Assembly (NCBI GenBank): GCA_040403535.1
Contig: JBBAKL010000003.1
Location: 35,248 to 99,247, forward strand
Source: Bacteroidia bacterium
GTDB lineage: Bacteria > Bacteroidota > Bacteroidia > B-17B0 > Aurantibacillaceae
Direction: 5' to 3'
DNA length: 64,000 nucleotides
Within the stretch, counting starts at the first letter, position 1. Each line of letters opens with the position of its first letter. The notes below the pieces were generated by a model. It worked only from the letters and a program-made list of their open reading frames with translations, ran no database searches and was not told where the DNA came from. Positions 6,646-40,823 of this stretch are shown here, one piece after another. A program made the translations under genes and the position numbers.

Positions 6646-6789
6646 GGGGTGTAAGTTAGTGGGTTCTAGAATTTGTAAATATAGAATTTTGCCCCAAATT
6701 TCAGGCATTTATGACTAACCGAAACCAAGACTCAACTCAGCCAAACTCTTCTTTTACTCGGTTCTGATATTTGCCATTATAAAATACCG

Positions 6790-9888: not shown

Positions 9889-9907
9889 GTCTTAAAAATG
9901 CGAAATA

Positions 9908-11488
9908 TTACTTAAAGTGCAAAACTGCTCGGTAAAGGCCTAAATCGTCAAATGAAGTTGTGGTAACGATTGCATTTTCCTTAACTCCTTTTTTAAGAAG
10001 CGCATTTTTTGTGGCTTCTCCCATGGCTACTGCTTTTTGGTTACTATTCAGCTTATTTTTTTCAAAATAGGCGTCTACGTTACTAGGACTGGTAAAGATA
10101 ATAATGTTAAAACTTTCGTCTACCTCAACACTGTGCTTGATTGTGGTGTAAACCGGAATATTGATTGCATTATCTTTTTTAGGAAATTGACTTTGTATGC
10201 TTAAAAGACTGTCTTTTGCAACAGGAAACAGAACTTTTGCGCTACCAACTAAAGAGGCAAATTGCTTTCCAATTAGTTTGGTGTCGGTACTCTGGCCAAT
10301 AAAATCGGCACGAAAACCAAACTTACGTAATTCTTCAGATGTGCCTTTACCAACACAACCAATTTTAACCTTACCAATTGCAGGTTTTTGATTAAAAAAA
10401 TATTTTACAGCATGCTTACTGCTAAAAAACAACCAATCGGTTGTAGGTATTTCTTTTATTTGGATTTGCTTAAATTCAATTAAGCTTTTTGCTTCCAACC
10501 GGAAATTAATTCCTTTTAAACTCCTGCTTAAAAAATCTTTATCCTGTACGTTACGTGTAATAAAAACTTTTTTAGGGGTTAATGCATTAATGTGTTCTAC
10601 GATGCGCTCAGAAAAACCATCGGTATGATAGGTTTCAAAATACAAATGCTTTGGTGTAGAATTCCAGGATGAGGCGATACTAACCCATGTTTTAAATCTG
10701 TTACGGTCTTCATCGTCTTTTTCGGTTTCGCAATATACACCCAATGGGAGTTGACAACCTCCATCAAATAAATTTAAAACCTTACGTTCAATATTAATCC
10801 GAATTAAAACATCCAAATCATTTAATTTATCCAGTATGTCTAGTAAGGCAGAATTATTGTCTTTTATTTGCCATGCCAAAACTCCTTGAGCGGGTGCGGG
10901 TATAAATTCAGTTGGATTTAATCGCTCAACATGAAATTCATCTAAATTAATTCCTAATCGTTCTACACCGGCAGCAGCTAATAAAATGGCATCATACTGC
11001 TTGTCGGCCAGTTTTTTTATTCGTGTAGGAACGTTTCCTCGTAAATCTTTAATTTCAACATCCGGTCTAAATGCCAACAACTGTGATTTTCGTCTGGCGG
11101 AAGATGTACCGACAAGAGCATTTTCTTTTAGTGAAAATTTTTTGTTGGTATCGGCTGATTCTTTTCTGATTAATAAAAGTTCAGAAGGGTCTTCTCGGTG
11201 CGAAACTGCGGCAATAATTAATCCATCCGGATACGTTGTAGGAAGATCTTTGTGTGAGTGCACGGCCAGGTCAATCGTCCCTGCCAACAATTCCTCTTCC
11301 AACTCTTTTGTGAAAAAACCTTTTCCTTCCAGCTTATCAAAGCTGGTATTCCATTGTTGTGTGCGATCGCCGGAAGTACTGATGATTTTCAGTTCAACCT
11401 CACAACCTAATTTTTCCAGTAAATCTTTTGTGTAATTGGCCTGCCAAAGCGCTAATTCGCTGCCGCGTGTGCCGATGATGATTTTCAT
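9908..11488 (-). CDS. hemC: Bifunctional hydroxymethylbilane synthase (HemC) / uroporphyrinogen-III synthase (HemD) fusion
   Basis: The N-terminal ~300 aa carry IIGTRGSELALWQA and the cofactor Cys context DGGCQLPLG. The C-terminal ~220 aa (KKVFITRN...IIIFTSPSNVDAYF) are HemD-like. Confidence 0.9.
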   Translation of the reverse strand: MKIIIGTRGSELALWQANYTKDLLEKLGCEVELKIISTSGDRTQQWNTSFDKLEGKGFFTKELEEELLAGTIDLAVHSHKDLPTTYPDGLIIAAVSHREDPSELLLIRKESADTNKKFSLKENALVGTSSARRKSQLLAFRPDVEIKDLRGNVPTRIKKLADKQYDAILLAAAGVERLGINLDEFHVERLNPTEFIPAPAQGVLAWQIKDNNSALLDILDKLNDLDVLIRINIERKVLNLFDGGCQLPLGVYCETEKDDEDRNRFKTWVSIASSWNSTPKHLYFETYHTDGFSERIVEHINALTPKKVFITRNVQDKDFLSRSLKGINFRLEAKSLIEFKQIQIKEIPTTDWLFFSSKHAVKYFFNQKPAIGKVKIGCVGKGTSEELRKFGFRADFIGQSTDTKLIGKQFASLVGSAKVLFPVAKDSLLSIQSQFPKKDNAINIPVYTTIKHSVEVDESFNIIIFTSPSNVDAYFEKNKLNSNQKAVAMGEATKNALLKKGVKENAIVTTTSFDDLGLYRAVLHFK

Positions 11489-16100: not shown

Positions 16101-18557
16101 TTAACGAATAAGATTGATGTGTCCGGTATAATGGTAGGCTTTTCCAAAGTAATCCATTGCCTGCGCTTTATAAATATAAACATCGTCTTTTACTGCCGAT
16201 CCTTTATACATACCATTCCATCCTTTATACAGATCATCCGTACTAAATAACTTTTCGCCCCACCGATCGTAAATTTGCATCGTAAATTCTTTTACTAAAG
16301 TTCCTACTGCAAAATAAACATCATTTATACCGTCGGTATTAGGCGTAAACGTGTTAGGAAAATACAAGGTCATAAAATCCTTTATGAAAAAATCATATTT
16401 CATATTGATTTTACAGCCATTATCACTCACGAGGAAGTAATTTACATAATACCACCCGAATTCCGACAAATTCAATACATTAATTGTGTCGCGCAACATA
16501 ACGCCATTGCTAAGTCCTGCAAAATCCAGATTCCACAAACTAGTCGGATGTAAAATAATCTGAAAATTTTCATTCACACTCGGATCACGTGGATTTATTT
16601 CAAAAGAACCATTAAATGGATCAACGCTATTGGAAATAATAAACGCAGCCGTATTTCTGCAGCCAACAGCATCCTCCACTGTTACATTATAATTACCCTG
16701 GCCTAAGGCAGTAGCGGTTGGGGTAGTTTGGCCATTGCTCCAAGTGTAACTAATTGGAGCAATTCCTCCCAATACTGTAACCGTTGCGCTTCCTTTTTTT
16801 TGATAACATTTGTCGTTTTCTTGCTCTTGTGTAAGAGGTAAATAAGTATAATTAACCACTGAATAAATTTTTGATGCCGGACAATTATCCTTATCGCGAA
16901 TTCCTACTGTATAAGTACCAGGACTTAACGACGTTACCGACGAAGTTGATTGTCCGCCTGACCAGGTATATGTGTAAGGGGCTGTTCCACCGTTTAATGA
17001 GTTTATATAAATTGCGCCATTTGCCTGACTGCAGGTAGCATTTACTATACTGTCCTGAAACGTTATCAACGGAGTATAATTACCAACAGTTAAGCTGGAT
17101 GTTTTAATACAGCCGTCGCCGTCCGTTACTGTAACGTAATAATTACCGGGATTTAAACCTCCTACTGTAGGTGTTGTTTGAGCGGGAGTGGTGCTCCAAA
17201 CTAAATTATAAGGCGAAACTCCTCCTGTTACATTAGCATTGGCAGTACCTGTGGCATTATTGCACAATGCGCTAGTTGTAGTTGGAGACAGAGCTAAATT
17301 TGTAGTAGCGAATATATTCACTGTGTCTTTTTTCATACACCCACTAGCATCGGTAATGGTACAAACATATATTCCAAGTGATAATCCGGTTGCCGTTTGA
17401 GAAAACTGAGCAGGAACCGTATTCCAAGAATAATTATAAGGCGCGTTGCCTCCTGAGGTATTAACTGTAACTGCCCCGTTTTGATCTTGAGGACACTTAA
17501 TATTGGTAATTGTATTTGTAAAGGTAAATCCGGGATTCTTTGGTACCTGAACATAAACAGTTTTGGTATATGGACAAGGACTATTAAACGTAATTTGGCA
17601 ATTATAATTTCCCGGCGCAAGATTTGTTGCCGTTGCGGAAGTTTGTCCACCCGGACTCCATAAATAAGTTGCAGTTCCGGTATAATTTCCGATTGATGCC
17701 GTAGCGGAACCATTGTTTAAATCGCATAAGGACGCAACAGTAGAAGTGGCTAAATTAGGGATTTGCGCATTGGCACAACTGATTCCTTTATATTCTAAAA
17801 ATACACCGGAATCGTACTCACAATCTCCGGCATCAGCTATTGCCAGTTTTAAATGATAGGTTTGGCAGGGCTGAACATTTACAGATGCAGTAAGCGGAGT
17901 AGTAAAACCATCATATTGCGCTGAACTACCGTTTGAATTATTAACATAATAAGCGCAATTTACACAAGGTCCGTTATTAAATTTTCCGTTATTAACGTTA
18001 TTGATAGCAACAGGGGTTCCGCCGGGTAAACGGGCAATGTTGAAGCCATTATAGGAACCTCCTAGCGGGTTTGCACCCCATATAAAAAAGCCAAATGCAT
18101 CATTAAATTGGCTGCCTACAAACTCAGGGTATTCTTCAGAAGCGAACACATATCTAATTTGTAGCGTATTACAAATAGGTTTAATGTCGAATTCCAGAAC
18201 ACAACCGTCGTAAGTAGCCTTAGGCTCAATACTGTTTAATTGCGGGTCGGAGAATGACGAATTTTTATTAAAACAGTCGCCTTTATCTGGATCGTTATTT
18301 GCCCCAGAGGCATTAGTTGCCTTACCGGTTGTCAGCAATACACCGCTAGTTAATCCGATACTAGAATTATTAGAAACAAACAACCCGGATGCGCTAGAGT
18401 TGCAATTTAAAACCGCGTTAGTAATGGTAACGTTGTTTCCCACAATTTGATTTACCAAGGCGGAGGCATTGCTGTTTGGTGCCACCAACAGTTGAGCCAA
18501 CAAAACATCATGTGTTGCTAGAATACAAATAAAAATATATAATGCTCTAATTTTCAA
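16101..18557 (-). CDS. Secreted choice-of-anchor-L domain / SprB-repeat protein with a T9SS type-B (gliding motility-associated) C-terminal sorting domain
   Basis: TTG start followed by signal peptide KIRALYIFICILATHDVLLAQ. The N-terminal domain carries YVFASEEYPEFVGSQFNDAFGFFIWG. Five repeats follow the pattern C..(N/K)G.A......GG..PY.Y.WS. The C-terminus is FPNTFTPNTDGINDVYF...IYDRWGEKLF...GWNG...DDVYIYK...GHINLIR. Confidence 0.9.
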   Translation of the reverse strand: MKIRALYIFICILATHDVLLAQLLVAPNSNASALVNQIVGNNVTITNAVLNCNSSASGLFVSNNSSIGLTSGVLLTTGKATNASGANNDPDKGDCFNKNSSFSDPQLNSIEPKATYDGCVLEFDIKPICNTLQIRYVFASEEYPEFVGSQFNDAFGFFIWGANPLGGSYNGFNIARLPGGTPVAINNVNNGKFNNGPCVNCAYYVNNSNGSSAQYDGFTTPLTASVNVQPCQTYHLKLAIADAGDCEYDSGVFLEYKGISCANAQIPNLATSTVASLCDLNNGSATASIGNYTGTATYLWSPGGQTSATATNLAPGNYNCQITFNSPCPYTKTVYVQVPKNPGFTFTNTITNIKCPQDQNGAVTVNTSGGNAPYNYSWNTVPAQFSQTATGLSLGIYVCTITDASGCMKKDTVNIFATTNLALSPTTTSALCNNATGTANANVTGGVSPYNLVWSTTPAQTTPTVGGLNPGNYYVTVTDGDGCIKTSSLTVGNYTPLITFQDSIVNATCSQANGAIYINSLNGGTAPYTYTWSGGQSTSSVTSLSPGTYTVGIRDKDNCPASKIYSVVNYTYLPLTQEQENDKCYQKKGSATVTVLGGIAPISYTWSNGQTTPTATALGQGNYNVTVEDAVGCRNTAAFIISNSVDPFNGSFEINPRDPSVNENFQIILHPTSLWNLDFAGLSNGVMLRDTINVLNLSEFGWYYVNYFLVSDNGCKINMKYDFFIKDFMTLYFPNTFTPNTDGINDVYFAVGTLVKEFTMQIYDRWGEKLFSTDDLYKGWNGMYKGSAVKDDVYIYKAQAMDYFGKAYHYTGHINLIR
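16637..17726 (-). repeat. Tandem SprB-type repeats (~75 aa each) within the 818-aa protein
   Basis: CDLNNGSATASIGNYTGTATYLWSPGG, CPQDQNGAVTVNTSGGNAPYNYSWN, CNNATGTANANVTGGVSPYNLVWS, CSQANGAIYINSLNGGTAPYTYTWSGG, CYQKKGSATVTVLGGIAPISYTWSNG. Confidence 0.8.
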
Positions 18558-18839: not shown

Positions 18840-19643
18840 ATGAGCAAGAACAAAACATCAGGAGGATTTCCTTTGGTAGTTTCGGCATTAGCAATCGCTA
18901 TTTGCATTGGTATCGGCGTTTTTATTTTCACCAAGGTATTAGGTGCGCCAAGTAATTTTGAAGGTGGCGATCCAATTAAAGGCCATCCTCATAACATTTT
19001 AGGAACCATGTACAAAGGTGGATTTATCGTGCCTATCCTAATCGGTTTCTTATTAACTGTAATTACATTTGCGATCGAGCGTTTTGTTACCATTCAAAAA
19101 GCTAACGGAAAAGGTCAAACTGACAAGTTCGTTGCTAAAATTAAAGAATTAATTTCTTCACACGATTTTGACGGAGCTATTGCAGAATGCGATAAGCAAA
19201 AAGGTTCATTAGCAAACGTTGTACACGAAGGTATTTCTAAATACAAATTCGTTATGAACGATGCTACAATGGATAAAGAAGGAAAAGTTCACGCTATTCA
19301 GAAATCTTTAGAAGAGGCAACTGCTTTAGAATTACCAATGTTATCTAAAAACATGGTTGTAATCTCTACAATGGCTTCAATTGGCACATTAGCCGGTCTT
19401 ATTGGTACCGTAGTTGGTATGATCCGTGCGTTCGCGGCTTTAGCAAATGCAGGTGCGCCTGATACAGCAGCGTTAGCAACCGGTATCTCTGAAGCGTTAG
19501 TTAATACCTTAGTTGGTATCTTAACTTCTGCCTTAGCGATTATTTTCTACAACTTATTTAGTAACCGTATCGACCAGATTACTTACGCTATGGACGAAGC
19601 CGGATTCTCTATTATCCAGGAATTCCAGTCAAGCGGTAAATAA
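18840..19643 (+). CDS. exbB: MotA/TolQ/ExbB proton-channel protein
   Basis: C-terminal TM pair with GTLAGLIGTVVGMIRAF and ISEALVNTLVGILTS. Confidence 0.9.
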   Translation: MSKNKTSGGFPLVVSALAIAICIGIGVFIFTKVLGAPSNFEGGDPIKGHPHNILGTMYKGGFIVPILIGFLLTVITFAIERFVTIQKANGKGQTDKFVAKIKELISSHDFDGAIAECDKQKGSLANVVHEGISKYKFVMNDATMDKEGKVHAIQKSLEEATALELPMLSKNMVVISTMASIGTLAGLIGTVVGMIRAFAALANAGAPDTAALATGISEALVNTLVGILTSALAIIFYNLFSNRIDQITYAMDEAGFSIIQEFQSSGK

Positions 19644-19725
19644 TTTCCGAGTGCTTGAAAAATATTTTTTCAGGCTTTATGGAATTTTAAATAAGTATTC
19701 ATCTAAATATTAAAACACTAAGAAA

Positions 19726-20406
19726 ATGTCAAAAAAACCATCAAAAGGCGGCGCACCAAGCTTAGACATGACACCCATGGTGGACTTAGCTTTCTTGCTC
19801 GTGACCTTTTTTATGTTGACAGCTTCTTTTCGCATGGCGGAACCGGTAACGGTTGATCCTCCATCATCTATCGGACAGGTAACTTTACCTGATAACCATA
19901 TTATGGTTACCATTGATGATAAGGGCCGTGTGTTTTTTGGAATCAGCAATTCTACCGCTAAAATGGCTGCACTTCGCGCCATGAGCGAAAAATACAAAGT
20001 TCCATTCTCTGAACAACAAATTAAAAAGTTCAGCGGATTACCAAGTATAGGAGTAGATTTAAAGGATTTACCAAGATACATTGATGCCAGCGAAAACGAA
20101 AGAACGAACTTTCAACCTCAAAAAGGTATTCCAAACGATACTTTAAATAATCCACAATTAAAAGACTGGATTTCGTTTGCGGGTAAAGAAGCGGTTATGG
20201 CTTATAACGAAGCTAAAGAAAAAGCAGAAGCTTCCGGCCAGGAACTAAAAGCCGAAAAACCTCGCTATGCAATTAAATGCGACGGAAAAACAAAGTATAT
20301 AATGGTTAAAGATGCTATTAAAACTTTTACAGATTTAAAAATTTATCAGTTTAACTTAATTACTTCTTTAGAAGGTGGCGGAACAGTTCTTGATCCAACT
20401 AAATAA
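19726..20406 (+). CDS. exbD: ExbD/TolR family biopolymer transport protein (long form)
   Basis: N-terminal motif LDMTPMVDLAFLLVTFFML. Confidence 0.85.
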   Translation: MSKKPSKGGAPSLDMTPMVDLAFLLVTFFMLTASFRMAEPVTVDPPSSIGQVTLPDNHIMVTIDDKGRVFFGISNSTAKMAALRAMSEKYKVPFSEQQIKKFSGLPSIGVDLKDLPRYIDASENERTNFQPQKGIPNDTLNNPQLKDWISFAGKEAVMAYNEAKEKAEASGQELKAEKPRYAIKCDGKTKYIMVKDAIKTFTDLKIYQFNLITSLEGGGTVLDPTK

Positions 20407-20429
20407 GAATTAAATAATAAAATTAACAC

Positions 20430-21071
20430 ATGGCAGAAATAGCAGAAGGCGGCGGTGGCGGTGGCCACAAAGGTGGCAAAAAACGCGCCAAGAAACAGTC
20501 GACGAAAATCGATATGACGCCAATGGTTGACTTAGCGTTCCTGTTATTAACGTTTTTCGTTTTAACATCAACCTTTAGTAAACCAAAATCAATGGAGTTA
20601 ACTTTCCCTGCTCCGCCTGAGAATATTAAAGATCAGCCTCCGATTAAAAACGGTATCACTTTTATTTTAACGAAAGATGATCGTATTTTTTATTATGAAG
20701 GTGAGTTTCGTCCAGAAGCTGATGACAAAGGCCCAAAAACTGAACTGAAAGAATTAAATTTCTCTCAGGGAGACGGAGGCTTGCACAAATATTTAGGCGA
20801 GAAAAACAAATGGTTACACGACCAGGTTAAAGAATTGGATACAAAACTCCAAAACAATCAAGTTGCTGATACAACTTACAAACGTTTGGTTAAACAGGCA
20901 AAAGCAGACAAAAACACTCCTACTTTCCTGATTAAAACTGACGACAAAGCTACTTACAAAAATGTTATTGACCTTATTGATGAATTAAACATCAACATCG
21001 TTGGTAAATATGTTGTAGTTGATATCATGAAGCCTGAATTGGATATGATTAACGAAAAAACAGGAGGTTAA
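20430..21071 (+). CDS. exbD: ExbD/TolR family biopolymer transport protein (second copy)
   Basis: IDMTPMVDLAFLLLTFFVL, with a Gly-rich N-terminus AEGGGGGGHKGGKKRAKK. Confidence 0.85.
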   Translation: MAEIAEGGGGGGHKGGKKRAKKQSTKIDMTPMVDLAFLLLTFFVLTSTFSKPKSMELTFPAPPENIKDQPPIKNGITFILTKDDRIFYYEGEFRPEADDKGPKTELKELNFSQGDGGLHKYLGEKNKWLHDQVKELDTKLQNNQVADTTYKRLVKQAKADKNTPTFLIKTDDKATYKNVIDLIDELNINIVGKYVVVDIMKPELDMINEKTGG

Positions 21072-21072
21072 T

Positions 21073-21870
21073 ATGCTACAGAATTGGAATGACCTTACAA
21101 TGGACGCGCGTAACGAATTGGTTTTTGCAGGCAGAAATCAAAACTACGGAGCGTACGAATTGCGCAGAGCATACAACAAGCGCGTTACTATGATTATTGG
21201 TGGCATGATTGTGTTTAGCTTGGCGTTATTCGCTTTAAAAATGTTTATTGACAATAAACCTAAAGAAACTGAAAAACCTGTGGACATGAGTAATATCGTC
21301 GTAGATTTAACTCCACCACCACCACAGGAAGAGCAACCACCACCGCCACCGCCGCCACCACCACCACCAATGGTTGAAATGGTGAAATTCGTTCCTCCGG
21401 TTATTAAGGACGATGCAGTGGAAGAAGAGCCTCAGAAATTACAGGAAGACGTTAAAGAAACAAACGTTGGTACTAAAGATCAGGAAGGTGAAAAAGATCT
21501 TCCGGTTGTTCCAGTTGAAGATAGCGGACCGGCAGAAGCAGCTGCTCCTGAAGTTTTCACAGTTGTAGAAGAAATGCCTGAGTTCCCGGGTGGAACAATG
21601 GAAATGATGAAGTACATTCAGAAGAACATTCAATACCCTGCAATGGCTCGCGAAGCAGGCATCAGCGGTAAGTGTTTCTTAAAGTTTGTTGTTAATGGCG
21701 ATGGCGCAATTAGCGACGTTCAGATTCTGAAGGGTGTAGGTGGTTGTCCGGATTGCGATAAAGAAGCAATGCGCGTTGTTAAATCAATGCCGAAATGGAA
21801 AGCCGGTAAACAAAACGGACGTGCTGTTCCGGTTTACTTTAATTTACCTATTAACTTTACAATTAAATAA
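21073..21870 (+). CDS. tonB: Energy transducer TonB
   Basis: N-terminal TM segment, Pro-rich spacer PPPPQEEQPPPPPPPPPPP, and a C-terminal domain MPEFPGG...MPKWKAGKQNGRAVPVYFNLPINF. Confidence 0.85.
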   Translation: MLQNWNDLTMDARNELVFAGRNQNYGAYELRRAYNKRVTMIIGGMIVFSLALFALKMFIDNKPKETEKPVDMSNIVVDLTPPPPQEEQPPPPPPPPPPPMVEMVKFVPPVIKDDAVEEEPQKLQEDVKETNVGTKDQEGEKDLPVVPVEDSGPAEAAAPEVFTVVEEMPEFPGGTMEMMKYIQKNIQYPAMAREAGISGKCFLKFVVNGDGAISDVQILKGVGGCPDCDKEAMRVVKSMPKWKAGKQNGRAVPVYFNLPINFTIK

Positions 21871-31953: not shown

Positions 31954-31982
31954 AAGGGGATGTTATCACATCCCCTTTTTTA
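31954..31982 (+). terminator. Intrinsic terminator for the kbl transcript. It overlaps the stop of the convergent esterase gene
   Basis: aaggggatg-ttatca-catcccctttttt. Confidence 0.6.
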
Positions 31983-32882
31983 TTCGCCTTTCACCCACTT
32001 CACAATTTGCTGATGCACGATGCCTTGAAACGAATTGTTCAAACCAAAGGGCGAATGTTTTCCGTTAGGTAAATTAAATAAACGATGCTTGATTTTTTTA
32101 CACTGTAAAGAATCATCCAATTGTTTACTCTGCTCGAATGGCACTACATCATCATCAGTAGCGTGAACTATCAATGTTGGAATATTTTTTATATGATAAA
32201 TAGGACTTGCACTAATTACAACCTTTTTATCTTTAACGAACTCTTCACCCAACAATTTCTTATATAAACCTTGCATTCCCCAACCATTTTCCGCTAATTT
32301 TTTAAAACCTTCGTCATTTAAGTTCGTTGGTCCTGCAAGAGAAATTACAGAGTGAATAGTATAGGCATTTTTTACTGAGTAAGCATATAACAAGGCCAAA
32401 TGTCCGCCGGCACTACTTCCTAATAAATTATATTTATCATTAGGCATACCATAAGTACTCGCATTTTGTTTTAGAGCAAACAGCAATTCGTGTATGTCTT
32501 GCAACATGCCCGTATAATTTACACCATTATCCAATAAGCGATAATTCATGTTGGCAACAATTACATTATCATCGCAAAATTCCTCGGCCCATTCGTCCAT
32601 AAAATCGTTTTTATCGCCCATTACCCAGGCACCGCCATGAATTAAAACTATAATTGGCGTTTTACTGTTTCTGCCGGAAGGCAAATACAAATCGTACTGA
32701 TTTAGCGGATGCTTTCCGTATTTCAGGTTTTTAAAAACGAAGCGTTCACTGGTAGAGTATTGTATTTTTACAGGAATTATGGGTTTGGGTCGTGAAAACA
32801 AGCCATACAAATAAATTACAAGTATTGCCAAAGCGGCAATAATTACCAGGTACAGCCATTTTGTGTTTTGAATAAATTGCAT
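31980..32882 (-). CDS. Alpha/beta-hydrolase (esterase/lipase-type), membrane-anchored
   Basis: N-terminal TM segment, oxyanion motif VLIHGGAW, and nucleophile elbow GSSAGGHLA. Confidence 0.8.
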   Translation of the reverse strand: MQFIQNTKWLYLVIIAALAILVIYLYGLFSRPKPIIPVKIQYSTSERFVFKNLKYGKHPLNQYDLYLPSGRNSKTPIIVLIHGGAWVMGDKNDFMDEWAEEFCDDNVIVANMNYRLLDNGVNYTGMLQDIHELLFALKQNASTYGMPNDKYNLLGSSAGGHLALLYAYSVKNAYTIHSVISLAGPTNLNDEGFKKLAENGWGMQGLYKKLLGEEFVKDKKVVISASPIYHIKNIPTLIVHATDDDVVPFEQSKQLDDSLQCKKIKHRLFNLPNGKHSPFGLNNSFQGIVHQQIVKWVKGE

Positions 32883-33051: not shown

Positions 33052-33558
33052 ATGGCAAAGCAATCGATAAATTATTTTGAGCTGGAACAAACACCGGAAG
33101 ATTATAATTTTCTTTTGTTTGGTATTGCCAGTTCCGACAATCAATATGTTATTGCTAACGCAATTAACGACGTATTAAACATCGATTTACAACTGGCAGA
33201 TTACATTGACTTAAGTCACCGGATTGGAAAGGACTTTAAGTTTTCGTTTTATAGCTATACCGACGAGGCATTTAACCTTGAATACAATTTAATTCCGAAT
33301 AAAAGCAACTTTGTAGCAAACACAAATGAAAAAAAATCGGAGGGCGATTTATTTGCCATGTTTAACGAATCGGTAGATGAAAGTAGTCGCTTAATTCCTG
33401 AATTAACAAAGACAGATTTTCTGCTTCTCATTAAAGGAGACGAACATTATCACTACGGATACAAAATACAAGAACTACTTAAATCTATACCCGAAATAAT
33501 TTCGTTACAAGAAATCATTCCAGATAAACTAAGCAGCAAGAGTAACCTAATCTTTTAA
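33052..33558 (+). CDS. IPExxxVDY-family protein (Bacteroidota-specific, unknown function)
   Basis: Motif LIPELTKTDFLLLIKG fits IPE-x3-(V/T)D(Y/F), ~168 aa. The family name is recalled, not searched. Confidence 0.5.
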   Translation: MAKQSINYFELEQTPEDYNFLLFGIASSDNQYVIANAINDVLNIDLQLADYIDLSHRIGKDFKFSFYSYTDEAFNLEYNLIPNKSNFVANTNEKKSEGDLFAMFNESVDESSRLIPELTKTDFLLLIKGDEHYHYGYKIQELLKSIPEIISLQEIIPDKLSSKSNLIF

Positions 33559-34596
33559 TAAGGCATCCCAGCCTTGAGCTTTTAACGTAGCCACATTACC
33601 TGACTTGGTGATTAAATGCCTACCACGCTCTTTATTGGTAATATGTCCAATGATGGTAAAGTCTGGAAGATTTTTAACCTTGTCGTAATCCTCTGCTTTA
33701 ATAGTAAACAACAATTCATAATCTTCACCTCCGCTTAGCGCGCATACGGTTGGATCTAATCCAAACTGACGGGCAGTATCGTACGTTTGTTCATCCAGCG
33801 GTATTTTTTCCTCGTACAATTCAACACCTACATCCGATTGCGAACAGATATGTAAGATTTCGGAAGCCAATCCGTCACTTACATCAATCATGGCCGTTGG
33901 AACAACATTAAGTTCATTAAGTAATTTTATAACATCACGACGAGCTTCCGGTTTTAACTGACGTTCCAAAATATAATCCTTACCTTCTAAATCGGGTTGA
34001 ATATTTGGATTTTCTTTAAATACCGATTTTTCTCTCTCAAGAATTTGCAATCCCATATAGGCTCCGCCTAAATCACCACTAACACACAGCAAATTTGTTT
34101 CCTTTGCTCCGTTACGGTAAACTATTTTGTCTTTTTGTCCTTCGCCTAAAACAGTAATACTGATAACCAGTCCGGTTCGTGAGGAAGTAGTATCGCCACC
34201 AACCAGATCAACTCCATACTTTTCACATGCAAGCAACATACCTGCGTATATTTCTTCAACAGCCTCTAAGCTAAAGCGACTTGAAATAGCTATGCTCACT
34301 ACCACTTGTTTAGGCTGGCCATTCATAGCGTAAATATCGCTTAGGTTGACTATTACGGATTTATAACCTAAATGTTTTAATGGCACGTAAGTTAAATCGA
34401 AGTGCACGCCTTCAACCAACATATCAGTTGAAACCAAAGTAACCGTATCGGTATTGGTATAATTTATAACCGCCGCATCATCGCCCACTCCTTTAAGTGT
34501 AGATGCATTTTTAACTTCGATATGCTGGGTTAAATGTTTAATTAATCCGAACTCACCTAATGAGCTAATTTCTGTACGTGATGAATTTTCGAGCAT
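33547..34596 (-). CDS. thiL: Thiamine-monophosphate kinase
   Basis: GEFGLIKHLT, GVGDDAAV, and a PurM-like fold pattern. Confidence 0.9.
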   Translation of the reverse strand: MLENSSRTEISSLGEFGLIKHLTQHIEVKNASTLKGVGDDAAVINYTNTDTVTLVSTDMLVEGVHFDLTYVPLKHLGYKSVIVNLSDIYAMNGQPKQVVVSIAISSRFSLEAVEEIYAGMLLACEKYGVDLVGGDTTSSRTGLVISITVLGEGQKDKIVYRNGAKETNLLCVSGDLGGAYMGLQILEREKSVFKENPNIQPDLEGKDYILERQLKPEARRDVIKLLNELNVVPTAMIDVSDGLASEILHICSQSDVGVELYEEKIPLDEQTYDTARQFGLDPTVCALSGGEDYELLFTIKAEDYDKVKNLPDFTIIGHITNKERGRHLITKSGNVATLKAQGWDALLKD

Positions 34597-34597
34597 G

Positions 34598-36085
34598 TTA
34601 CAAATTTAAATAATATTCAATTAACGCTTTTTTATCTGTTTTATAATTACTGTTTACTGGCATTTCTTTAACCGTAATTATTTCGCTTGGTATCATGTAG
34701 GATGGTAAGTGTTGGGAGATGTTTGTTTTTGTCTCTTCCACATTTAACTCGCCTTCGTTTAAAGTAACAAAAGAAACTATTTTCTTAACGGTATTCCCTT
34801 GTTTTAAAGGAACCGTTACTGCGTTTGTTATGTTATTTTGTTTTTGAAGCACCTCACTAATCTCATCCAATTCGATTCGATAACCATTTAATTTTACCTG
34901 ATTGTCATTCCGACCAAGAAAATAAATCATTTCATTTTTAATGTATCCCTGATCGCCGGTTTTATAAGCACGCTTTCCATTATGCAAGTAAAAGGAAGCT
35001 TCGTTTTTTTCTTTGTTGTTTAAGTAACCTACAGAAACATTATCGCCTACAATAACCAGTTCACCGGTATCTTCTGAATTACCACTTTCGTTTAAGACCA
35101 ACAATTCCGAGTTAGTTTTCATATAGCCAATTGGCAACACAGTTGGGTTTTGCGCTACTATTTCATCGGTCACTTCCAGATAAGTTACAACTACAGTTGC
35201 TTCTGTTGGACCGTATGAATTAACAATGCGAGAAGAAGGAAATACACGTTTCAATTTCTTAACAGTAGTTACAGGGAGTTCTTCACCAATGAAAATATAA
35301 TTTTTTAATGCGGGGTAATTTTGTTCGTTAAATTGAGGTGTAGAGACATACATGTAAATAAACGAAGGGGTACACACCATGACGTTAGCCTGGTATTCGT
35401 TTAAACGATGTAAAAACTTATTCGCATCTTTCAATATCTCGTAATTATTCAACACCATAGTTGCGCCATGATGAAGTGCTCCTATAAAGTCACAAAGCGA
35501 AATATCAAAACTAAATGGTGCCTGATTCATGTAAACACTCTCTCTGTTTATTCCGGGCCAGTTTGCATACCATTTTGTAAAATCATTTAACGCCTGAGCG
35601 GTAATTTGTACACCTTTTGGTTCTCCGGTACTACCTGATGTAAACAATATGTACCGGACGGGATCTGCTTCAACTGTTTTGCTATTTAAGACTGCCGATT
35701 TATTTCCTTTTACCAAATTAAAATCCGAATCAATTATATATTCGATATCGATAGGCGTTGGTTTAGAGGAACAATTAATCATCACCTGAGCTCCCAATAT
35801 GTCGGCAATTTTCTTTACACGTTCGGCAGGCATAATGGCATCTACCGGAACATAAATTGTATTTAAATTGATAAGTGTTAACATGGCGATCGGGAAATTG
35901 GCTTCCTTTTCGCCATAAATCATTACCGGCTTATCATTTGGTAAAAAGTTTAATGCTGTTTTTAATTTTTCACACGATTCATACACTTGTTGCCAATTGA
36001 GTACTTTATCGGTACCAACAATCGCTGGCTTATCCTTCGCAACACTTAACTCTTTAAATTCATTTATATAAAAATTATACCTCAT
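34598..36085 (-). CDS. dltA: DltA-like amino-acid (D-alanine-type) carrier-protein ligase, adenylate-forming
   Basis: ILFTSGSTGEPKGVQIT, NQAPFSFDISL, CTPSF, YGPTEATVVVT, YKTGDQGY. Near-collinear with my recalled (unverified) Bacillus DltA sequence. The start overlaps the dltB-like stop by 1 nt (TAATG). Confidence 0.85.
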   Translation of the reverse strand: MRYNFYINEFKELSVAKDKPAIVGTDKVLNWQQVYESCEKLKTALNFLPNDKPVMIYGEKEANFPIAMLTLINLNTIYVPVDAIMPAERVKKIADILGAQVMINCSSKPTPIDIEYIIDSDFNLVKGNKSAVLNSKTVEADPVRYILFTSGSTGEPKGVQITAQALNDFTKWYANWPGINRESVYMNQAPFSFDISLCDFIGALHHGATMVLNNYEILKDANKFLHRLNEYQANVMVCTPSFIYMYVSTPQFNEQNYPALKNYIFIGEELPVTTVKKLKRVFPSSRIVNSYGPTEATVVVTYLEVTDEIVAQNPTVLPIGYMKTNSELLVLNESGNSEDTGELVIVGDNVSVGYLNNKEKNEASFYLHNGKRAYKTGDQGYIKNEMIYFLGRNDNQVKLNGYRIELDEISEVLQKQNNITNAVTVPLKQGNTVKKIVSFVTLNEGELNVEETKTNISQHLPSYMIPSEIITVKEMPVNSNYKTDKKALIEYYLNL

Positions 36086-37212
36086 TAATGTATTAATCTT
36101 CCGCTAAACACATACAGTGCAAAGCATGCTAAGTTAAACATAATAAAAATGCTAATGTATTTAATTGCAAGCGGTGACATGCTTCCAAAAACAACATCCT
36201 TGTCGTTTACACGGCAATTATATTGGTAAATATTATGAATAACACTATATGCGCCGTAAATAATTCCACTCCAGATAAAATTTGGCTCAAAACCATTCCA
36301 GCATCCCATGGTAAACAAGGTTAAAAATATGGCCAGATTTTGTTTGGTTAATGGAGCCTTTTTTAACTTCTGAAAGCTATTAAGCCATTTGTAAAAAGGC
36401 TTGAATAAATAATCGGTTAACCAGTTAGTTAAACTTGCGTGCCAACGCTGCCAGAAATCGGGTGGATTAACAGCAAGAAACGGCGCATTAAAGTTAAACG
36501 GAACATTTATGCCAACCAATTTACCCATACCTACTGCCATAGCCGAATAACCCGCAAAATCAAAAAACAAATAAATGGTATAAGAATACATTTCATTTAA
36601 AAGCCACAATGGTTTGGTGCTCTCAAATAAATTAACATTTAACCAATAACGGGAAATAAATTCGGCAATTATAAACTTATATAAAACTCCAATTGAAAAT
36701 TCTTGTAAGCCACTTTCAATCTGAGGCGCATTAATGGATTCAAAGCCATTATTACAGTTTTCGGTAAAGCGTTTAAAACGATCTAAAGGACCAATATAGA
36801 ACGAGGGAATAAAGCAAAGAAAATTGGCATAATCCAAAAAATTAATTTTGGTTTTGTAATCACTGTCAAGCAAAACCTGCGCTGCCCTAAAACACACAAA
36901 CGATAAGCCGGCGAAATACATAAAAGGAAGACTAACATGTATTTTAAAAAGTATCATTGGAATGAGTAGAATAACTGTACTCCATAATTTATGATTGATG
37001 TATTTTGCCAGATAACTAGTAAACACATAACTAAATAGAACATAAATGCCCAACTCAATTCCATAACGAAAATACAGTGAGAAGTAAACCAAGGTTAATA
37101 TGAATGTCACTTCACGGTAAACACCCGACTTAATGGTCAACTTGCAAACCCATATTACCAACACATATACCAGTGCGAATACAAAAAAATCTATGTCAGT
37201 GAATGGTAACAT
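36085..37212 (-). CDS. dltB: DltB-like MBOAT-family membrane O-acyltransferase
   Basis: Polytopic membrane protein with MBOAT catalytic-His region FWQRWHASLTNWLTDYLFKPFY. Confidence 0.85.
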   Translation of the reverse strand: MLPFTDIDFFVFALVYVLVIWVCKLTIKSGVYREVTFILTLVYFSLYFRYGIELGIYVLFSYVFTSYLAKYINHKLWSTVILLIPMILFKIHVSLPFMYFAGLSFVCFRAAQVLLDSDYKTKINFLDYANFLCFIPSFYIGPLDRFKRFTENCNNGFESINAPQIESGLQEFSIGVLYKFIIAEFISRYWLNVNLFESTKPLWLLNEMYSYTIYLFFDFAGYSAMAVGMGKLVGINVPFNFNAPFLAVNPPDFWQRWHASLTNWLTDYLFKPFYKWLNSFQKLKKAPLTKQNLAIFLTLFTMGCWNGFEPNFIWSGIIYGAYSVIHNIYQYNCRVNDKDVVFGSMSPLAIKYISIFIMFNLACFALYVFSGRLIH

Positions 37213-37352
37213 TAAAATTGCGCGTAAATAAAGGAGAATGAAGAATGCGGTTTGTTATCAGCATGTTTATTTAACGGGTGGTACAAATAGTACACACCAA
37301 TTAAAATGAAGGCATACATCAAAATATTTAATATGATTTTTTTGAAATTCAT
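37212..37352 (-). CDS. dltX: DltX-like 46-aa single-TM micro-protein (not in the ORF track)
   Basis: Hand translation MNFKKIILNILMYAFILIGVYYLYHPLNKHADNKPHSSFSFIYAQF. The ATG overlaps the dltD-like stop (ATGA) and the TAA overlaps the dltB-like ATG (TAATG). The C-terminal hexapeptide FIYAQF resembles the conserved DltX tail as I recall it. Confidence 0.6.
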   Translation of the reverse strand: MNFKKIILNILMYAFILIGVYYLYHPLNKHADNKPHSSFSFIYAQF

Positions 37353-38548
37353 TCCTTGCAATATAAATTTTCGTTTATGAATTTATTAATCTGATACCAA
37401 CCATAATCGTATGGGTGCATAATATCCTCTAAAACACCAATGTCGTATTTTTTTATATTTGGGGTAAACATATCCAAATAAGTAAATCCGCCTTCGTCGA
37501 GTGATTTTCTAACCTCATCAATTGCCGGTCCCAGTTTTTCTAAGCCGTCATGAGCTAAAGTGTTTAAAGGTGTAATAACAAAACAAGGCTTTACATTATT
37601 CGACTTAAGAAATTGAATTAACGCTTTAAAATCATTTAACTCATTATTGGAAATGATAGGCACCGGATGAACATCCTTTTTATTCCCGCTACTCATCCAT
37701 TTAGAATAATACGCTTTAGCTACACCAAAAGAATTGTTGGAACATTGCTTTTTAAAATTCTCTTTAGAAACAACCAATAAAGAATCCCAATTTTCATTCA
37801 CGCAATTCATGATTCTTTTTTTAGGCTTCATCTTTGTAAGCTCATTTATTATCATTTCCTGAATTAAAAAATCGACCGAATAATTAATAGTGTTATTCAA
37901 TAAGTCGTTATTCAGTTTTACAAAAGGTTTATGAAATAATTTTAATTTATTAGCACGATGTGCGTATATGCGATGTAAACTGCCAGGCGAAGCAATTTTT
38001 TCGTATTGACTATTAACATATTTACTTATGTGGTTTTTAGTGTGTAAATCAATAGTTGTGTCTTTAAATATAGTGTACAGGTAACTCTCAGGACAAAACT
38101 CAAAAAACGAAGCAAGAGATGTTCCTTTAGCGTAATTACCTTCGAACCAACCCGGCGAAAGTATGATGAGCAAGCGAGAATTTTTTAGTAATTCTTTATT
38201 TGCGGCCAATACGGTTAACATGGCTAAATTTTGAAATCCGGCATGTCCAAATGCAAACAAATCTGCATGCTTTACTTCATTAAAATATCTATAGGGAACC
38301 CCCACTAAATGATTAGAGGTAAGTTCTGAAGAACCGAAAACAACAGGTGTACCGTTCGCCAGATTTCCGGAGAGATTAATTTGTCCTTTTAAATTATCAT
38401 CATAAAAATGATCGATAAATTTTTCAGAACCATATTTAGGAATAACAAATTTTGAGGATTCGGATTTTGAAACAGCAGGCTTAAAAGCAAAAAACAATAT
38501 TAGCCCAACACAAAAGGTTAGAATATAATATATAAAAATGTTTTTCAC
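37349..38548 (-). CDS. dltD: DltD-like membrane-anchored SGNH-type acyl transferase/esterase
   Basis: N-terminal TM segment IFIYYILTFCVGLILFFAF, Ser motif VVFGSSELTS, and C-terminal D-x-x-H motif LEDIMHPYDYGW. Confidence 0.75.
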   Translation of the reverse strand: MKNIFIYYILTFCVGLILFFAFKPAVSKSESSKFVIPKYGSEKFIDHFYDDNLKGQINLSGNLANGTPVVFGSSELTSNHLVGVPYRYFNEVKHADLFAFGHAGFQNLAMLTVLAANKELLKNSRLLIILSPGWFEGNYAKGTSLASFFEFCPESYLYTIFKDTTIDLHTKNHISKYVNSQYEKIASPGSLHRIYAHRANKLKLFHKPFVKLNNDLLNNTINYSVDFLIQEMIINELTKMKPKKRIMNCVNENWDSLLVVSKENFKKQCSNNSFGVAKAYYSKWMSSGNKKDVHPVPIISNNELNDFKALIQFLKSNNVKPCFVITPLNTLAHDGLEKLGPAIDEVRKSLDEGGFTYLDMFTPNIKKYDIGVLEDIMHPYDYGWYQINKFINENLYCKE

Positions 38549-38784
38549 TTCTGAATTTTAGTGATTAAGAGCTGCTGTATGGTTAAAGCGTCCTTAAAAT
38601 TTTCGGCATTAATTTCATTAAATGGTACCGATATACCCAGTTCTTCTTCCAAAGCGTTAGTTAAATCAACTACCAGTATAGATGTGAGGATACCTGATTT
38701 CAAAAGCTCGTCCTCCGGTTTTACCTTTTTGAAAGAGACTTCTTTTATTTTATCCAGAATAATATTTAATAGATCTTCTGCCAT
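38545..38784 (-). CDS. dltC: DltC-like acyl/aminoacyl carrier protein
   Basis: 79 aa. The phosphopantetheine Ser context SGILTSILVVDL aligns with DltC EGLLDSFGTVEL. There is a 4-nt overlap with the dltD-like start and a TAATG overlap with the upstream ALDH stop. Confidence 0.7.
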   Translation of the reverse strand: MAEDLLNIILDKIKEVSFKKVKPEDELLKSGILTSILVVDLTNALEEELGISVPFNEINAENFKDALTIQQLLITKIQK

Positions 38785-40229
38785 TATTTCAATTTAACAC
38801 ACACATTTTTAGGTTCGGTAAAGAAATCAAACGCTTCAAACCCACCTTCACGACCAACACCAGATGATTTTACGCCACCAAATGGTGTGCGCAAATCACG
38901 TAATAACCAGCAATTGATCCAAACAATTCCGGCGTGTAATTCATTTGCAACGCGGTTTGCTTTAGTGATATCTTGTGTCCAAACAGTAGAAGCTAATCCG
39001 TACATGGTAGAGTTGGCCATCATTAACACTTCCTCTTCTTTGTCAAAAGGAGTAATGGTAACCACCGGACCAAATATTTCTTCCTGATTAGTGCGACAAT
39101 TGTACGACAATCCTTCGATTATTGTTGGCTCTATATAAAATCCGTTTTCAAATTCACCATCAATTATTTTTCGTTTACCGCCACATAAAACTTTTCCACC
39201 TTCTTGTTGCGCTAATTCCACATAACTCAGAATTTTTTCCATATGTGATTTAGACACAACAGCGCCGATTTTCACTCCTTCTTGTAGCGGTTGTCCAACC
39301 GTTAGTTTCTTGGTACGCTCAACAAAATCATTCTTAAATTTTTCATATATAGAACGCTCAACAAAAATCCGGGAGCCACATAAACAAATTTGGCCTTGGT
39401 TAGCGAACGATGACAACATAGTTGTAGAAAGCATTTTTTCGTAATCGCAATCAGCAAAAATGATATTAGGATTTTTTCCTCCTAATTCTAAAGACATTTT
39501 CTTAAACATTGGTCCCGCTACGCTGGCAATATGTGCACCTGTTTTTGTTCCGCCGGTAAATGAAATAAGCGGAATATCTTTATGAGACACAATCGCGTTA
39601 CCTACTTTAGGACCTAAACCGTGCACAATATTTAAAACGCCTTTAGGTAATCCTGCCTGCATACAAATCTCAGAAAGCAAATACGCCGTCATAGGCGTGA
39701 CCTCAGATGGCTTGGCAACTACTGTGCAGCCTGCAGCAAGAGCAGGAGCAATTTTCCAGGTGAATAAATAAAGAGGTAAATTCCACGGTGAGATACAACC
39801 TGCCACGCCAACCGGTTGACGAAGGGTATAATTAATTGCCGTATCTTCCATTGCATGCGCATGCGACGAATAATGTAAAATTCCGGTTGCATAAAAGTTA
39901 AAATTAGCTGCTGCTCGTGGTATATCAACTGATTTTGCTAAATGTAAAGGCTTACCATTATCAACGCTTTCGATAAAAGCCAGCTTATCTAAATTCTCCT
40001 CTATTAAAAAAGAGATTTTTTGTAATATACGGGATCGTGTTTCCTTTGGCGTATTACTCCAGCCTTTAAAAGCAGCTTTTGCCGCTTGAGTAGCTAATGC
40101 AACATCACGTTCATCACTATCAGGAATCAACGAATAAACTCTCCCTCTAGACGGATCAACATTATCAATATACTGGTTACTTACTGGCGGAACCAATTCA
40201 CCATTTATGTAATTCTGTATTTTATCCAT
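38784..40229 (-). CDS. NAD(P)-dependent aldehyde dehydrogenase (ALDH8 / muconate-semialdehyde dehydrogenase-like subfamily)
   Basis: LELGGKNP (catalytic Glu), QGQICLCGSR (catalytic Cys), FTGGTKTG, and IPRAAANFNFYA. The subfamily assignment is tentative. Confidence 0.85.
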   Translation of the reverse strand: MDKIQNYINGELVPPVSNQYIDNVDPSRGRVYSLIPDSDERDVALATQAAKAAFKGWSNTPKETRSRILQKISFLIEENLDKLAFIESVDNGKPLHLAKSVDIPRAAANFNFYATGILHYSSHAHAMEDTAINYTLRQPVGVAGCISPWNLPLYLFTWKIAPALAAGCTVVAKPSEVTPMTAYLLSEICMQAGLPKGVLNIVHGLGPKVGNAIVSHKDIPLISFTGGTKTGAHIASVAGPMFKKMSLELGGKNPNIIFADCDYEKMLSTTMLSSFANQGQICLCGSRIFVERSIYEKFKNDFVERTKKLTVGQPLQEGVKIGAVVSKSHMEKILSYVELAQQEGGKVLCGGKRKIIDGEFENGFYIEPTIIEGLSYNCRTNQEEIFGPVVTITPFDKEEEVLMMANSTMYGLASTVWTQDITKANRVANELHAGIVWINCWLLRDLRTPFGGVKSSGVGREGGFEAFDFFTEPKNVCVKLK

Positions 40230-40235
40230 TACAAA

Positions 40236-40754
40236 TTATTTTTCGCAAAGTTCTTTTAAATTATTCAATCCCTGTTCAAACTGATGATTCAGATTTTTTA
40301 TGATTAGAGATCCCATTAACCGTCCCATGGGGTATGGCAATGGACCGTTATTATTCCACACTACTTTTGTGGTTCCATTTTTCAAGTCAGTGAATGTCCA
40401 ACTATCTAAAGCCTGAGATTTCCATGGCTTAATAAATTCAAGATCTAAAATAATCTCCTGTGGTGGCATTAGTCCTTTAACAGTTAAGCTACCTTGTCCG
40501 ATTTTTTTACCTTCCCATGAAAATTTATGTCCAACTGTAGCTGCCTCTCCACTAATTTCAGACGATGTATTTGGTTCTGTTTTATGCCATGGATTCCATT
40601 CGCGGTAGTACTTAAAATTTGCAACTTTTTCAAACACATCCGAACATGAATTATTAATGATTATTTCTTTTTGAACGGAATACTTTGATGGCATTATAGC
40701 TGCAGTAATTAGAAATAAACCAACAAATGCAAGTATAACATATAACACAATCAT
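40236..40754 (-). CDS. Membrane-anchored SRPBCC (START/polyketide-cyclase fold)-like protein
   Basis: The preferred start at 40754 gives MIVLYVILAFVGLFLITAAIMP. The track start at 40793 would include a TAnnTTTG box at 40777-40784. The fold call comes from length and pattern only. Confidence 0.5.
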   Translation of the reverse strand: MIVLYVILAFVGLFLITAAIMPSKYSVQKEIIINNSCSDVFEKVANFKYYREWNPWHKTEPNTSSEISGEAATVGHKFSWEGKKIGQGSLTVKGLMPPQEIILDLEFIKPWKSQALDSWTFTDLKNGTTKVVWNNNGPLPYPMGRLMGSLIIKNLNHQFEQGLNNLKELCEK

Positions 40755-40776
40755 AGTTGAAGATTTTAAGTTTAAA

Positions 40777-40784
40777 CAAAGATA
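40777..40784 (-). promoter_or_regulatory. Candidate -7 box for the SRPBCC/ALDH/dlt-like operon
   Basis: The minus strand reads tatctttg (TAnnTTTG), 23 nt upstream of the ATG at 40754 and just downstream of the cox terminator. Confidence 0.35.
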
Positions 40785-40790
40785 ATAAAA

Positions 40791-40823
40791 CAAAAATGCC
40801 CTCAGAAAAAGAGGGCATTTTTA
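40791..40823 (-). terminator. Intrinsic terminator after coxI
   Basis: caaaaatgccctc-agaaaaa-gagggcattttt. Confidence 0.65.

Follow-up and report, generated by a model that had tools for sequence, protein, structure and literature searches.

Dlt-type systems of Gram-negative bacteria, such as those of Bordetella and Dickeya, have been known for more than a decade. The Bordetella dra locus is reported, in the later papers that cite the original work, to modify the outer membrane with D-alanine (Taneja 2013, cited in PMC4448142 and PMC9858536), and a dltB mutant of Dickeya is sensitive to polymyxin (PMC3544676). The mechanism has been described for the Firmicute pathway, where D-alanine passes from DltC through DltB to a tyrosine of DltX, and from there to a serine of DltD and to lipoteichoic acid (LTA); the tyrosine belongs to an FxYxxF motif, and it takes D-alanine from DltB and passes it to DltD (PMC12148441). 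Here we analysed a stretch of 64,000 nucleotides from a Bacteroidia bacterium of the family Aurantibacillaceae (the window), which carries five consecutive genes resembling dltC, dltD, dltX, dltB and dltA. Judged from its sequence, this cassette is the known Gram-negative Dlt/Dra system in another phylum and not a Firmicute-type operon. The phylum is new, the system is known, and current understanding is not overturned. The five genes, in the order of transcription, are as follows.

38545-38784, minus strand: dltC-like aminoacyl carrier protein, 79 aa (Pfam, NCBIfam)
37349-38548, minus strand: dltD-like SGNH-type transferase, 399 aa, GTG start (Pfam, NCBIfam, structures)
37212-37352, minus strand: dltX-like micro-protein, 46 aa (FxYxxF motif, conserved open reading frame)
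36085-37212, minus strand: dltB-like MBOAT, 375 aa (NCBIfam LTA_dltB, structures)
34598-36085, minus strand: dltA-like amino-acid adenylase / carrier-protein ligase, 495 aa (NCBIfam, structures)

All five open reading frames (ORFs) are intact in the window sequence, with no frameshifts or internal stops, and Dlt models are the best NCBIfam matches. This bears out a preliminary description of the window, which had placed a complete Dlt-type module of five genes at these positions on the minus strand; the peptide motifs that it quoted are all present in the window translations. The span it assigned to the module (34598-40784) is too wide, as it includes an aldehyde dehydrogenase gene (aldh) and an SRPBCC gene that lie outside the module. 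It had also listed overlapping or closely spaced gene junctions, and such tight packing is indeed seen, with ATGA at the D/X junction and TAATG at the X/B and B/A junctions; the C/D junction is GTGA and not ATGA as listed. Since the stop/start overlaps reach unrelated flanking genes, they reflect a compact operon and nothing specific to Dlt. The proposed diderm Bacteroidota host was confirmed by a type IX secretion protein with SprB repeats and CHU_C (16101-18557) and an ExbB-ExbD-ExbD-TonB cluster (18840-21870) in the same window. The host being diderm, the acceptor is not expected to be a classical teichoic acid, either LTA or wall teichoic acid.

The carrier protein DltC matched the Pfam PP-binding family (1.2e-05, 25.9 bits, cut-off 20.8). 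Its best NCBIfam match was the DltC model PRK05087 (28 bits, cut-off 68), and a second DltC model scored 18.7 bits (cut-off 52). The predicted phosphopantetheine-attachment residue is Ser35 in the motif GILTS, and the serine of GIL[TS]S is kept in 17 Bacteroidota homologues. The attachment site reads TS in the window, in contrast to DS in Bordetella and Dickeya.

The micro-protein DltX has one hydrophobic/transmembrane helix and a C-terminal FIYAQF, which corresponds to the FxYxxF acyl-shuttle motif. By analogy, Tyr43 (codon 37224-37226) is the predicted acyl acceptor. An alternative TTG start lies at 37361. The preliminary description had recognized this micro-protein, and its assignment was strengthened by related Bacteroidota loci: all 17 that include the interval from dltD to dltB have a DltX-like ORF there, and most of these ORFs end in PH[TS]DFSF[VI]YAQF. 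The corresponding proteins end in FQYQQF in Bordetella, FEYQKF in Dickeya, FVYEEF in Aliarcobacter and FIYQQF in Fluviicola. It should be noted that the exact DltX sequence of the window is absent from a collection of 15 billion proteins in which its four neighbours are present, indicating that the ORF was missed by gene callers and is evidently unannotated in the source record. The X ORF was also left uncalled in the records of Aliarcobacter (L021) and of loci L022 and L023.

DltD, with an N-terminal membrane anchor and a periplasmic domain, matched Pfam DltD (PF04914) at 1.5e-44 (153.2 bits, cut-off 22.7) over profile positions 9-345 of 348. Its sole NCBIfam match was LTA_DltD (TIGR04092; 134.3 bits, below the cut-off of 150), and among solved structures it matched only DltD (6o93, 3bma and 6pfx; 1e-10). 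No variation was seen among 27 homologues at G72, S73, S74, E75, D375 and H378, and the motifs GSSE and D375-x-x-H378 can be aligned with structure 6o93. Ser74 (GSSE), Asp375 and His378 (DIMH) are the predicted catalytic residues, and the motif GASE in Dickeya DltD indicates that the second serine, Ser74, is the nucleophile. The GTG start is supported by Lys2, which is nearly invariant in the homologues.

The MBOAT protein had a single NCBIfam match, LTA_dltB (TIGR04091), which covered the full length of the model (2-380 of 380) at 2.4e-71 (241 bits, cut-off 375). Among solved structures it matched only DltB (6bug and 8jem; 2e-36). The protein ends in FSGRLIH and has no fused C-terminal shuttle motif.

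For the adenylase, the two top NCBIfam matches were both DltA models, PRK04813 (436.3 bits, cut-off 476) and TIGR01734 (416.6 bits, cut-off 559.85), the DltA model reaching 1.4e-130; a generic adenylation domain scored 291 bits. Compared with solved structures, DltA was matched at 5e-93 and the glycine-specific AlmE (4oxi) at 1.8e-32. Over residues 150-345, the DltA structures scored 138 bits, as against 80 bits for the best non-ribosomal peptide synthetase (NRPS) domain. Asp194, the residue of FSFD that binds the alpha-amino group, and the A10 lysine, Lys482, are conserved across homologues. Like DltC Ser35, DltX Tyr43, Ser73/Ser74, Asp375 and His378 of DltD, and DltB His258, they are kept in proteins of 25-60% identity. 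In agreement with the preliminary description, these profile and structure searches found the adenylase to be DltA-like and not an aryl or fatty-acid ligase, and the MBOAT to be DltB-like and not of the AlgI/PatA type.

The window cassette closely resembles the Bordetella dra locus (BP2987-BP2991, with homologues in Alcaligenaceae). Both have five components of nearly equal size in the order C-D-X-B-A, an X protein ending in FxYxxF, and a DltB with W-N-G at the active site, and both belong to diderm hosts without teichoic acid. In B. bronchiseptica (L019) the locus encodes a PP-binding protein of 79 aa, a DltD of 375 aa, a 41-aa ORF, an MBOAT of 375 aa and an AMP-binding protein of 487 aa. The differences include the phylum and the residue at the DltA Cys269 position, which is Cys in Bordetella and Ile in the window. 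Aliarcobacter butzleri (L021) likewise has C, D, an uncalled X, B (with GMWNG) and A in this order. The order C-D-X-B-A, which the preliminary description had regarded as a permutation of the Firmicute order, is therefore that of the B. bronchiseptica dra and A. butzleri loci and the standard one for a diderm-type Dlt/Dra system, of which the window cassette represents Bacteroidota. The dlt genes of Dickeya, Pectobacterium and Photorhabdus (PMC3544676) share with the window a diderm host and an Asn-type DltB, and Dickeya also has a short X (40 aa) ending in FEYQKF, as well as Ile at the DltA Cys269 position. They differ in having GASE instead of GSSE in DltD, in their identity of 25-40% to the window proteins, and in the polymyxin-resistance phenotype shown for Dickeya. 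The gene order in Dickeya parazeae is D-X-B-A-C, which departs from that of the window only in the position of C. The A, B and C proteins of the window are 36-38% identical to those of Bordetella, and 34-40% when Bordetella and Dickeya are taken together.

The Firmicute DltXABCD system comprises the same five protein families, would use the same relay chemistry, and provides the closest solved structures to the window DltA, DltB and DltD. However, its gene order is X-A-B-C-D, its DltB has His336 where the window has Asn306, and Cys269 and Met201 of its DltA correspond to Ile266 and Cys198 in the window. The AlmEFG system, which glycylates lipid A in Vibrio cholerae, resembles the window cassette in its DltA-like adenylase and DltC-like carrier, which serve to aminoacylate a Gram-negative envelope lipid; it has no MBOAT, DltD or DltX, and a cytoplasmic-face LpxL-like acyltransferase carries out the transfer. 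An AlmEFG identity was rejected for the window cassette, as no AlmG-type (LpxL-like) gene was found among the ORFs adjoining it on both sides, and the adenylase matches AlmE far less well than DltA. The PatA/PatB and AlgI/AlgJ/X systems share with the window an MBOAT and SGNH pair across the inner membrane and a tyrosine shuttle with FxYxxF (PMC12148441). In those MBOATs, the motif is fused at the protein's own C-terminus on two extra helices, the donor is acetyl-CoA, and there is no carrier protein (PMC12148441). They also lack an adenylase, whereas the window encodes the motif on a separate 46-aa protein and would use a carrier-protein thioester as the donor.

A residue regarded as catalytic is replaced in every diderm-type DltB examined, namely those of Bacteroidota, Bordetella, Dickeya, Photorhabdus and Aliarcobacter. 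His336 of Firmicute DltB has been called an invariant active-site residue, adjoining the conserved His289 (PMC11035591). In the window DltB, His258 (FWQRWHASL) aligns with His289, and Asn306 (CWNGF, codon 36295-36297) aligns unambiguously with His336 in the motif MGxW[H/N]G. W-N-G was found in 16 of 16 Bacteroidota DltB homologues, and the Asn-type protein was seen in the window and in loci L001-L014, L017 and L019-L022. In an exhaustive search, the 31 nearest 50%-identity representatives of the window DltB carried W-N-G and about 110 more distant ones carried W-H-G. A second search, for homologues of Photorhabdus DltB, gave W-N-G in 112 of 115. The Asn group includes Photorhabdus, Dickeya, Buttiauxella, Paralcaligenes, Janthinobacterium and Aliarcobacter, together with Bordetella pertussis, B. 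bronchiseptica, B. avium and B. holmesii.

In a neighbour-joining (NJ) tree of 113 DltB sequences, made without bootstrap support, the 38 Asn-type sequences formed one clade and the 74 His-type sequences fell outside it. The window DltB belonged to this clade along with those of Bordetella, Dickeya, Photorhabdus and Aliarcobacter, so that, contrary to the preliminary description, the locus does not reproduce the Firmicute machinery. The Asn-type systems are active, because the Dickeya dltB mutant is polymyxin-sensitive and Bordetella dra is reported to incorporate D-alanine. With Asn at the His336 position, the DltB active site retains a single histidine, His258, which is then the sole candidate for the general base. 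A possible compensating histidine 17 residues downstream of Asn306 (YSVIHN) was rejected, as it is not invariant, being Tyr in L012 and Phe in Janthinobacterium. A literature search on the substitution of Asn for His336 found no mention of it in the papers searched. This site is the most surprising by-product of the analysis, and its occurrence in active systems is relevant to the catalytic mechanism of acyl transfer by MBOAT enzymes. The C-D-X-B-A order, Asn in place of DltB His336 and an X protein ending in FxYxxF can serve as markers for the diderm type.

Three close DltB-like representatives (P0169, P0172 and P0174) are 593-602 aa long and have a fused extra C-terminal region of about 220 aa. 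One of them has Asn at both active-site positions, and one has Trp at the His336 position.

To find relatives, one genome per GTDB species was scanned. This survey yielded 18 dlt loci, all in uncultured Bacteroidota metagenome-assembled genomes (MAGs). Their dlt proteins are 40-64% identical to those of the window, and the order is C-D-X-B-A in every one of the 18 loci long enough to show it. The retention of a five-gene order at such identities implies purifying selection. Annotation pipelines have already named these MAG proteins 'D-alanyl transfer protein' or 'DltD'. The same order was found in Fluviicola sp. (L024), and in L022 and L023 once the uncalled X ORF was read from the gap between D and B. 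In L025 and L027 the called genes run C-D-B-A or C-D-X-B-A, X being called in L027. Altogether, the cassette is present in more than 20 independent Bacteroidota assemblies. None of the papers searched dealt with a Bacteroidota Dlt system, in agreement with the preliminary description, which was aware of no characterised example. Our analysis extends the system, as a self-contained five-gene unit of fixed organisation, to Bacteroidota, mostly in uncultured freshwater and wastewater lineages and including the Fluviicola sp. of GCA_039596395.1.

The steps of the relay can be proposed by homology with the Firmicute pathway. DltA would adenylate a small amino acid, most probably D-alanine, and load it as a thioester on the phosphopantetheine arm at Ser35 of DltC. 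DltC would dock on the cytoplasmic side of DltB, which would pass the aminoacyl group across the inner membrane to Tyr43 of DltX (FIYAQF). DltX may then hand the group to Ser74 of the membrane-anchored DltD, and DltD would esterify a hydroxyl of an envelope acceptor on the periplasmic side of the inner membrane.

Three MAG loci place the cassette in a context that bears on the acceptor. In L012, L013 and L014 it is embedded, in the same orientation, in a polysaccharide locus, which extends over positions 1-16300 in L012 and L014 and 1-10213 in L013. Upstream are glycosyltransferase (GT) genes of families GT11, GT2, GT4 and GT1, two FemAB/GNAT-like genes, a 269-aa gene of no named family and another GT2 gene, followed by dltCDXBA. 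Downstream of the cassette, L012 and L014 have a Wzy_C gene and a DegT aminotransferase gene; L013 ends within dltB. In L001, a GT-C (Alg9/PMT_2-like) glycosyltransferase gene is directly upstream of the cassette. The polysaccharide context in L012-L014 and the GT-C neighbour in L001 suggest a lipid-linked glycan as acceptor, and loci inside polysaccharide clusters offer a testable hypothesis about the acceptor. The FemAB-like pair in the L012-L014 loci hints at further aminoacyl decoration of the glycan.

Because all five components are intact, Dlt models are their best or only matches, and the catalytic and attachment residues and the gene order are conserved, we consider it likely that the cassette is a functional relay of the diderm Dlt/Dra type. 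Several observations weigh against this reading or parts of it. DltA, DltB, DltC and DltD all score below the curated NCBIfam (equivalog/subfamily) cut-offs, although the Dlt models are their best matches. The DltB residue regarded as catalytic is Asn306 instead of His336. The DltA pocket departs from that of Firmicute DltA at about six of ten specificity positions, although its small, hydrophobic character is kept, and window Ile266 aligns with B. cereus Cys269, the residue being Met in most relatives and Leu in two. Nearly all Bacteroidota carriers are uncultured MAGs known from sequence alone. The neighbourhoods of the cassette vary widely (housekeeping genes, type IX secretion cargo, pheT and others); for most species, that of the window included, this speaks against an acceptor polysaccharide made by the surrounding locus. 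Furthermore, the modified component in Bordetella is reported to be protease-susceptible, which would point to a protein and not a glycan.

The Asn residue raises the question of whether the cassette is a decaying or inactive relic, with a DltB that has lost the MBOAT catalytic histidine. The unambiguous alignment of Asn306 with a residue described as invariant (PMC11035591) speaks for this, but a whole clade of at least 38 diverse sequences has Asn without exception, the remaining catalytic residues are conserved along with all five genes, and the window genes have no frameshifts or stops. Members of the same clade are functional in Dickeya (PMC3544676) and, as far as the incorporation of D-alanine cited in PMC4448142 goes, in Bordetella, and we regard a relic as very improbable. 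Even less credible is a recent transfer from a Gram-positive bacterium, or contamination of the assembly by one. It would fit the somewhat lower G+C content of the dlt genes (0.28-0.35, against 0.385-0.39 in the flanking aldh, thiL and coxI) and the position relative to aldh, since the cassette lies on the opposite side of aldh from that in eight related MAGs, where aldh is downstream of dltA. However, the dlt genes overlap Bacteroidota housekeeping genes, the same contig carries type IX secretion and TonB genes, and more than 20 independent Bacteroidota assemblies contain the cassette. Its gene order is the diderm one, and DltB groups with diderm and not Firmicute sequences. The lower G+C content and the changed side of aldh are compatible with the cassette moving as a unit. 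Some database records name relatives of the MBOAT 'probable alginate O-acetylase AlgI' or 'peptidoglycan O-acetyltransferase', as would be expected if the system performed AlgI/PatA-type O-acetylation with acetyl-CoA and no aminoacyl relay. Such an activity is scarcely conceivable for an MBOAT that is short (375 aa), ends in FSGRLIH, has its motif on a separate micro-protein and an adenylase and carrier protein encoded alongside, and returns only the DltB model in NCBIfam.

Within a functional relay, the amino acid and the acceptor can be considered separately. On sequence grounds D-alanine appears the somewhat favoured cargo. The pocket of the window DltA is formed by Ile195, Cys198, Ser241, Ile264, Ile266, Ser290, Val298 and Val299, and its code, D-I-C-S-I-I-S-V-V-K, differs from that of B. 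cereus DltA, D-L-M-S-L-C-T-V-A-K. Cys269 of DltA, which is present in all five Firmicute DltA structures shown, is said, following work by Du et al. in 2008, to select D- over L-alanine. At this position the Bacteroidota clade has Ile, Met or Leu, and Dickeya has Ile as in the window. At position 239 the Bacteroidota clade has an invariant Cys (window Cys198), where Firmicutes have Met201. Because of this altered pocket, the assignment of D-alanine stays an inference, and other small amino acids are possible. The same relay could thus activate glycine, L- or D-serine or L-alanine, the modification then not being D-alanylation; the pocket code and the shortfall of the DltA models from curated cut-offs would agree with this, which we nevertheless hold to be unlikely. 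DltA structures are closest by far, also over the pocket region (138 versus 80 bits), the glycine-specific AlmE is much more distant, and Asp194 and a small hydrophobic pocket are kept. Positions 239 and 301 seem to have exchanged Met and Cys in a way that conserves volume. Moreover, Cys269 is retained in Bordetella and Aliarcobacter, which belong to the same clade, and D-alanine incorporation has been reported for Bordetella. As for the acceptor, a glycan is a tentative and rather doubtful proposal, and a lipid-linked or lipopolysaccharide (LPS)-type surface glycan is put forward with low confidence. It is quite plausible, if slightly on the improbable side, that the acceptor is instead a general outer-membrane or periplasmic component in all carriers, such as lipid A/core, peptidoglycan, a lipid or glucan bearing phosphoglycerol or, as suggested for Bordetella, an envelope protein, the polysaccharide context of the three MAGs being incidental. 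The cassette is autonomous, and its neighbours are unrelated from one carrier to the next, be it the window, Bordetella, Dickeya, Aliarcobacter, Fluviicola or further Bacteroidota contigs, as a general acceptor would lead one to expect. Yet no acceptor has been identified so far in any diderm (PMC3544676), three MAGs place the cassette in a Wzy-type glycan locus, and one MAG has the adjacent GT-C glycosyltransferase. Returning to a glycan acceptor, we tentatively speculate, while thinking it fairly improbable, that the diderm Dlt/Dra clade is a mechanistically distinct MBOAT branch, in which Asn takes the place of the histidine regarded as invariant and catalytic in all MBOATs, so that His258 alone would support transfer to the DltX tyrosine, and which in Bacteroidota would aminoacylate a non-teichoic surface glycan (Wzy-dependent O-antigen, capsule or LPS). 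If true, aminoacylation of a surface glycan would be a previously unrecognised envelope modification in Bacteroidota.

The following features adjoin the cassette in the window.

40791-40823, no strand: terminator-like hairpin of 12-13 bp between coxI and the SRPBCC gene (pattern scan only)
40236-40754, minus strand: SRPBCC (polyketide cyclase-like) protein (Pfam Polyketide_cyc2, 2e-07)
38784-40229, minus strand: aldehyde dehydrogenase (aldh), not part of the Dlt relay (Pfam Aldedh, 8e-168)
33547-34596, minus strand: thiL (thiamine-phosphate kinase), not part of the relay (TIGR01379, 322 bits, cut-off 184)

The SRPBCC gene lies 6 nt upstream of aldh, aldh is co-oriented with dltC and overlaps it from upstream by 1 nt (TAATG), and thiL starts after a 1-nt gap 3' of dltA. 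The aldh gene is probably in the same transcript as the dlt genes, and the transcription unit probably begins with the SRPBCC gene. Srpbcc-aldh-dltCDXBA-thiL is likely to form one unit, with the hairpin at 40791-40823 as its upstream boundary. This hairpin contains G+C, is flanked by T-runs on both strands, and resembles a bidirectional terminator. An Rfam scan of the window gave no match, no site fitting the Bacteroidota promoter consensus was found near the operon, and the matches of a sigma-70 scan of the window were at or below chance level.

Several neighbouring genes were considered as functional partners of the relay and rejected. In this lineage, aldh is found downstream of dltA in 8 related loci (81-84% identity to the window aldh), and thiL is a conserved neighbour in 6 (71-74% identity). 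Both are lineage-specific neighbours whose position relative to dlt varies; Bordetella, Dickeya, Aliarcobacter and Fluviicola have no aldh in their dlt loci, and thiL is absent from the dlt loci of other taxa. None of the related loci has the SRPBCC gene beside dlt. An esterase of the BD-FAE / alpha-beta-hydrolase type with a membrane anchor (31980-32882, minus strand) was considered as an FmtA/DltE-like D-alanine esterase, and has no homologue near dlt in the related loci. In 10 loci (L003-L005, L007-L010 and L016-L018), two paralogous genes in tandem, denoted 'c0' and each encoding a protein of about 280 aa with a signal peptide, lie on the opposite strand immediately upstream of dltC. They were not retained as partners, as the window does not contain them, neither Pfam nor NCBIfam gave a match, and they are unrelated to the outer-membrane protein encoded next to dlt in L023.

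In L025 and L026 (positions 1-10700), the cassette directly follows genes on the same strand for a giant SprB/CHU_C adhesin, a PorP/SprF partner and a PD40/PKD protein. This arrangement may be fortuitous, or it may connect the cassette with type IX secretion cargo. On the other side of thiL in the window, a gene for a protein of the IPExxxVDY family (33052-33558, plus strand; NF033205, 91.5 bits, above the cut-off) is convergent with thiL and overlaps its 3' end by 12 nt.

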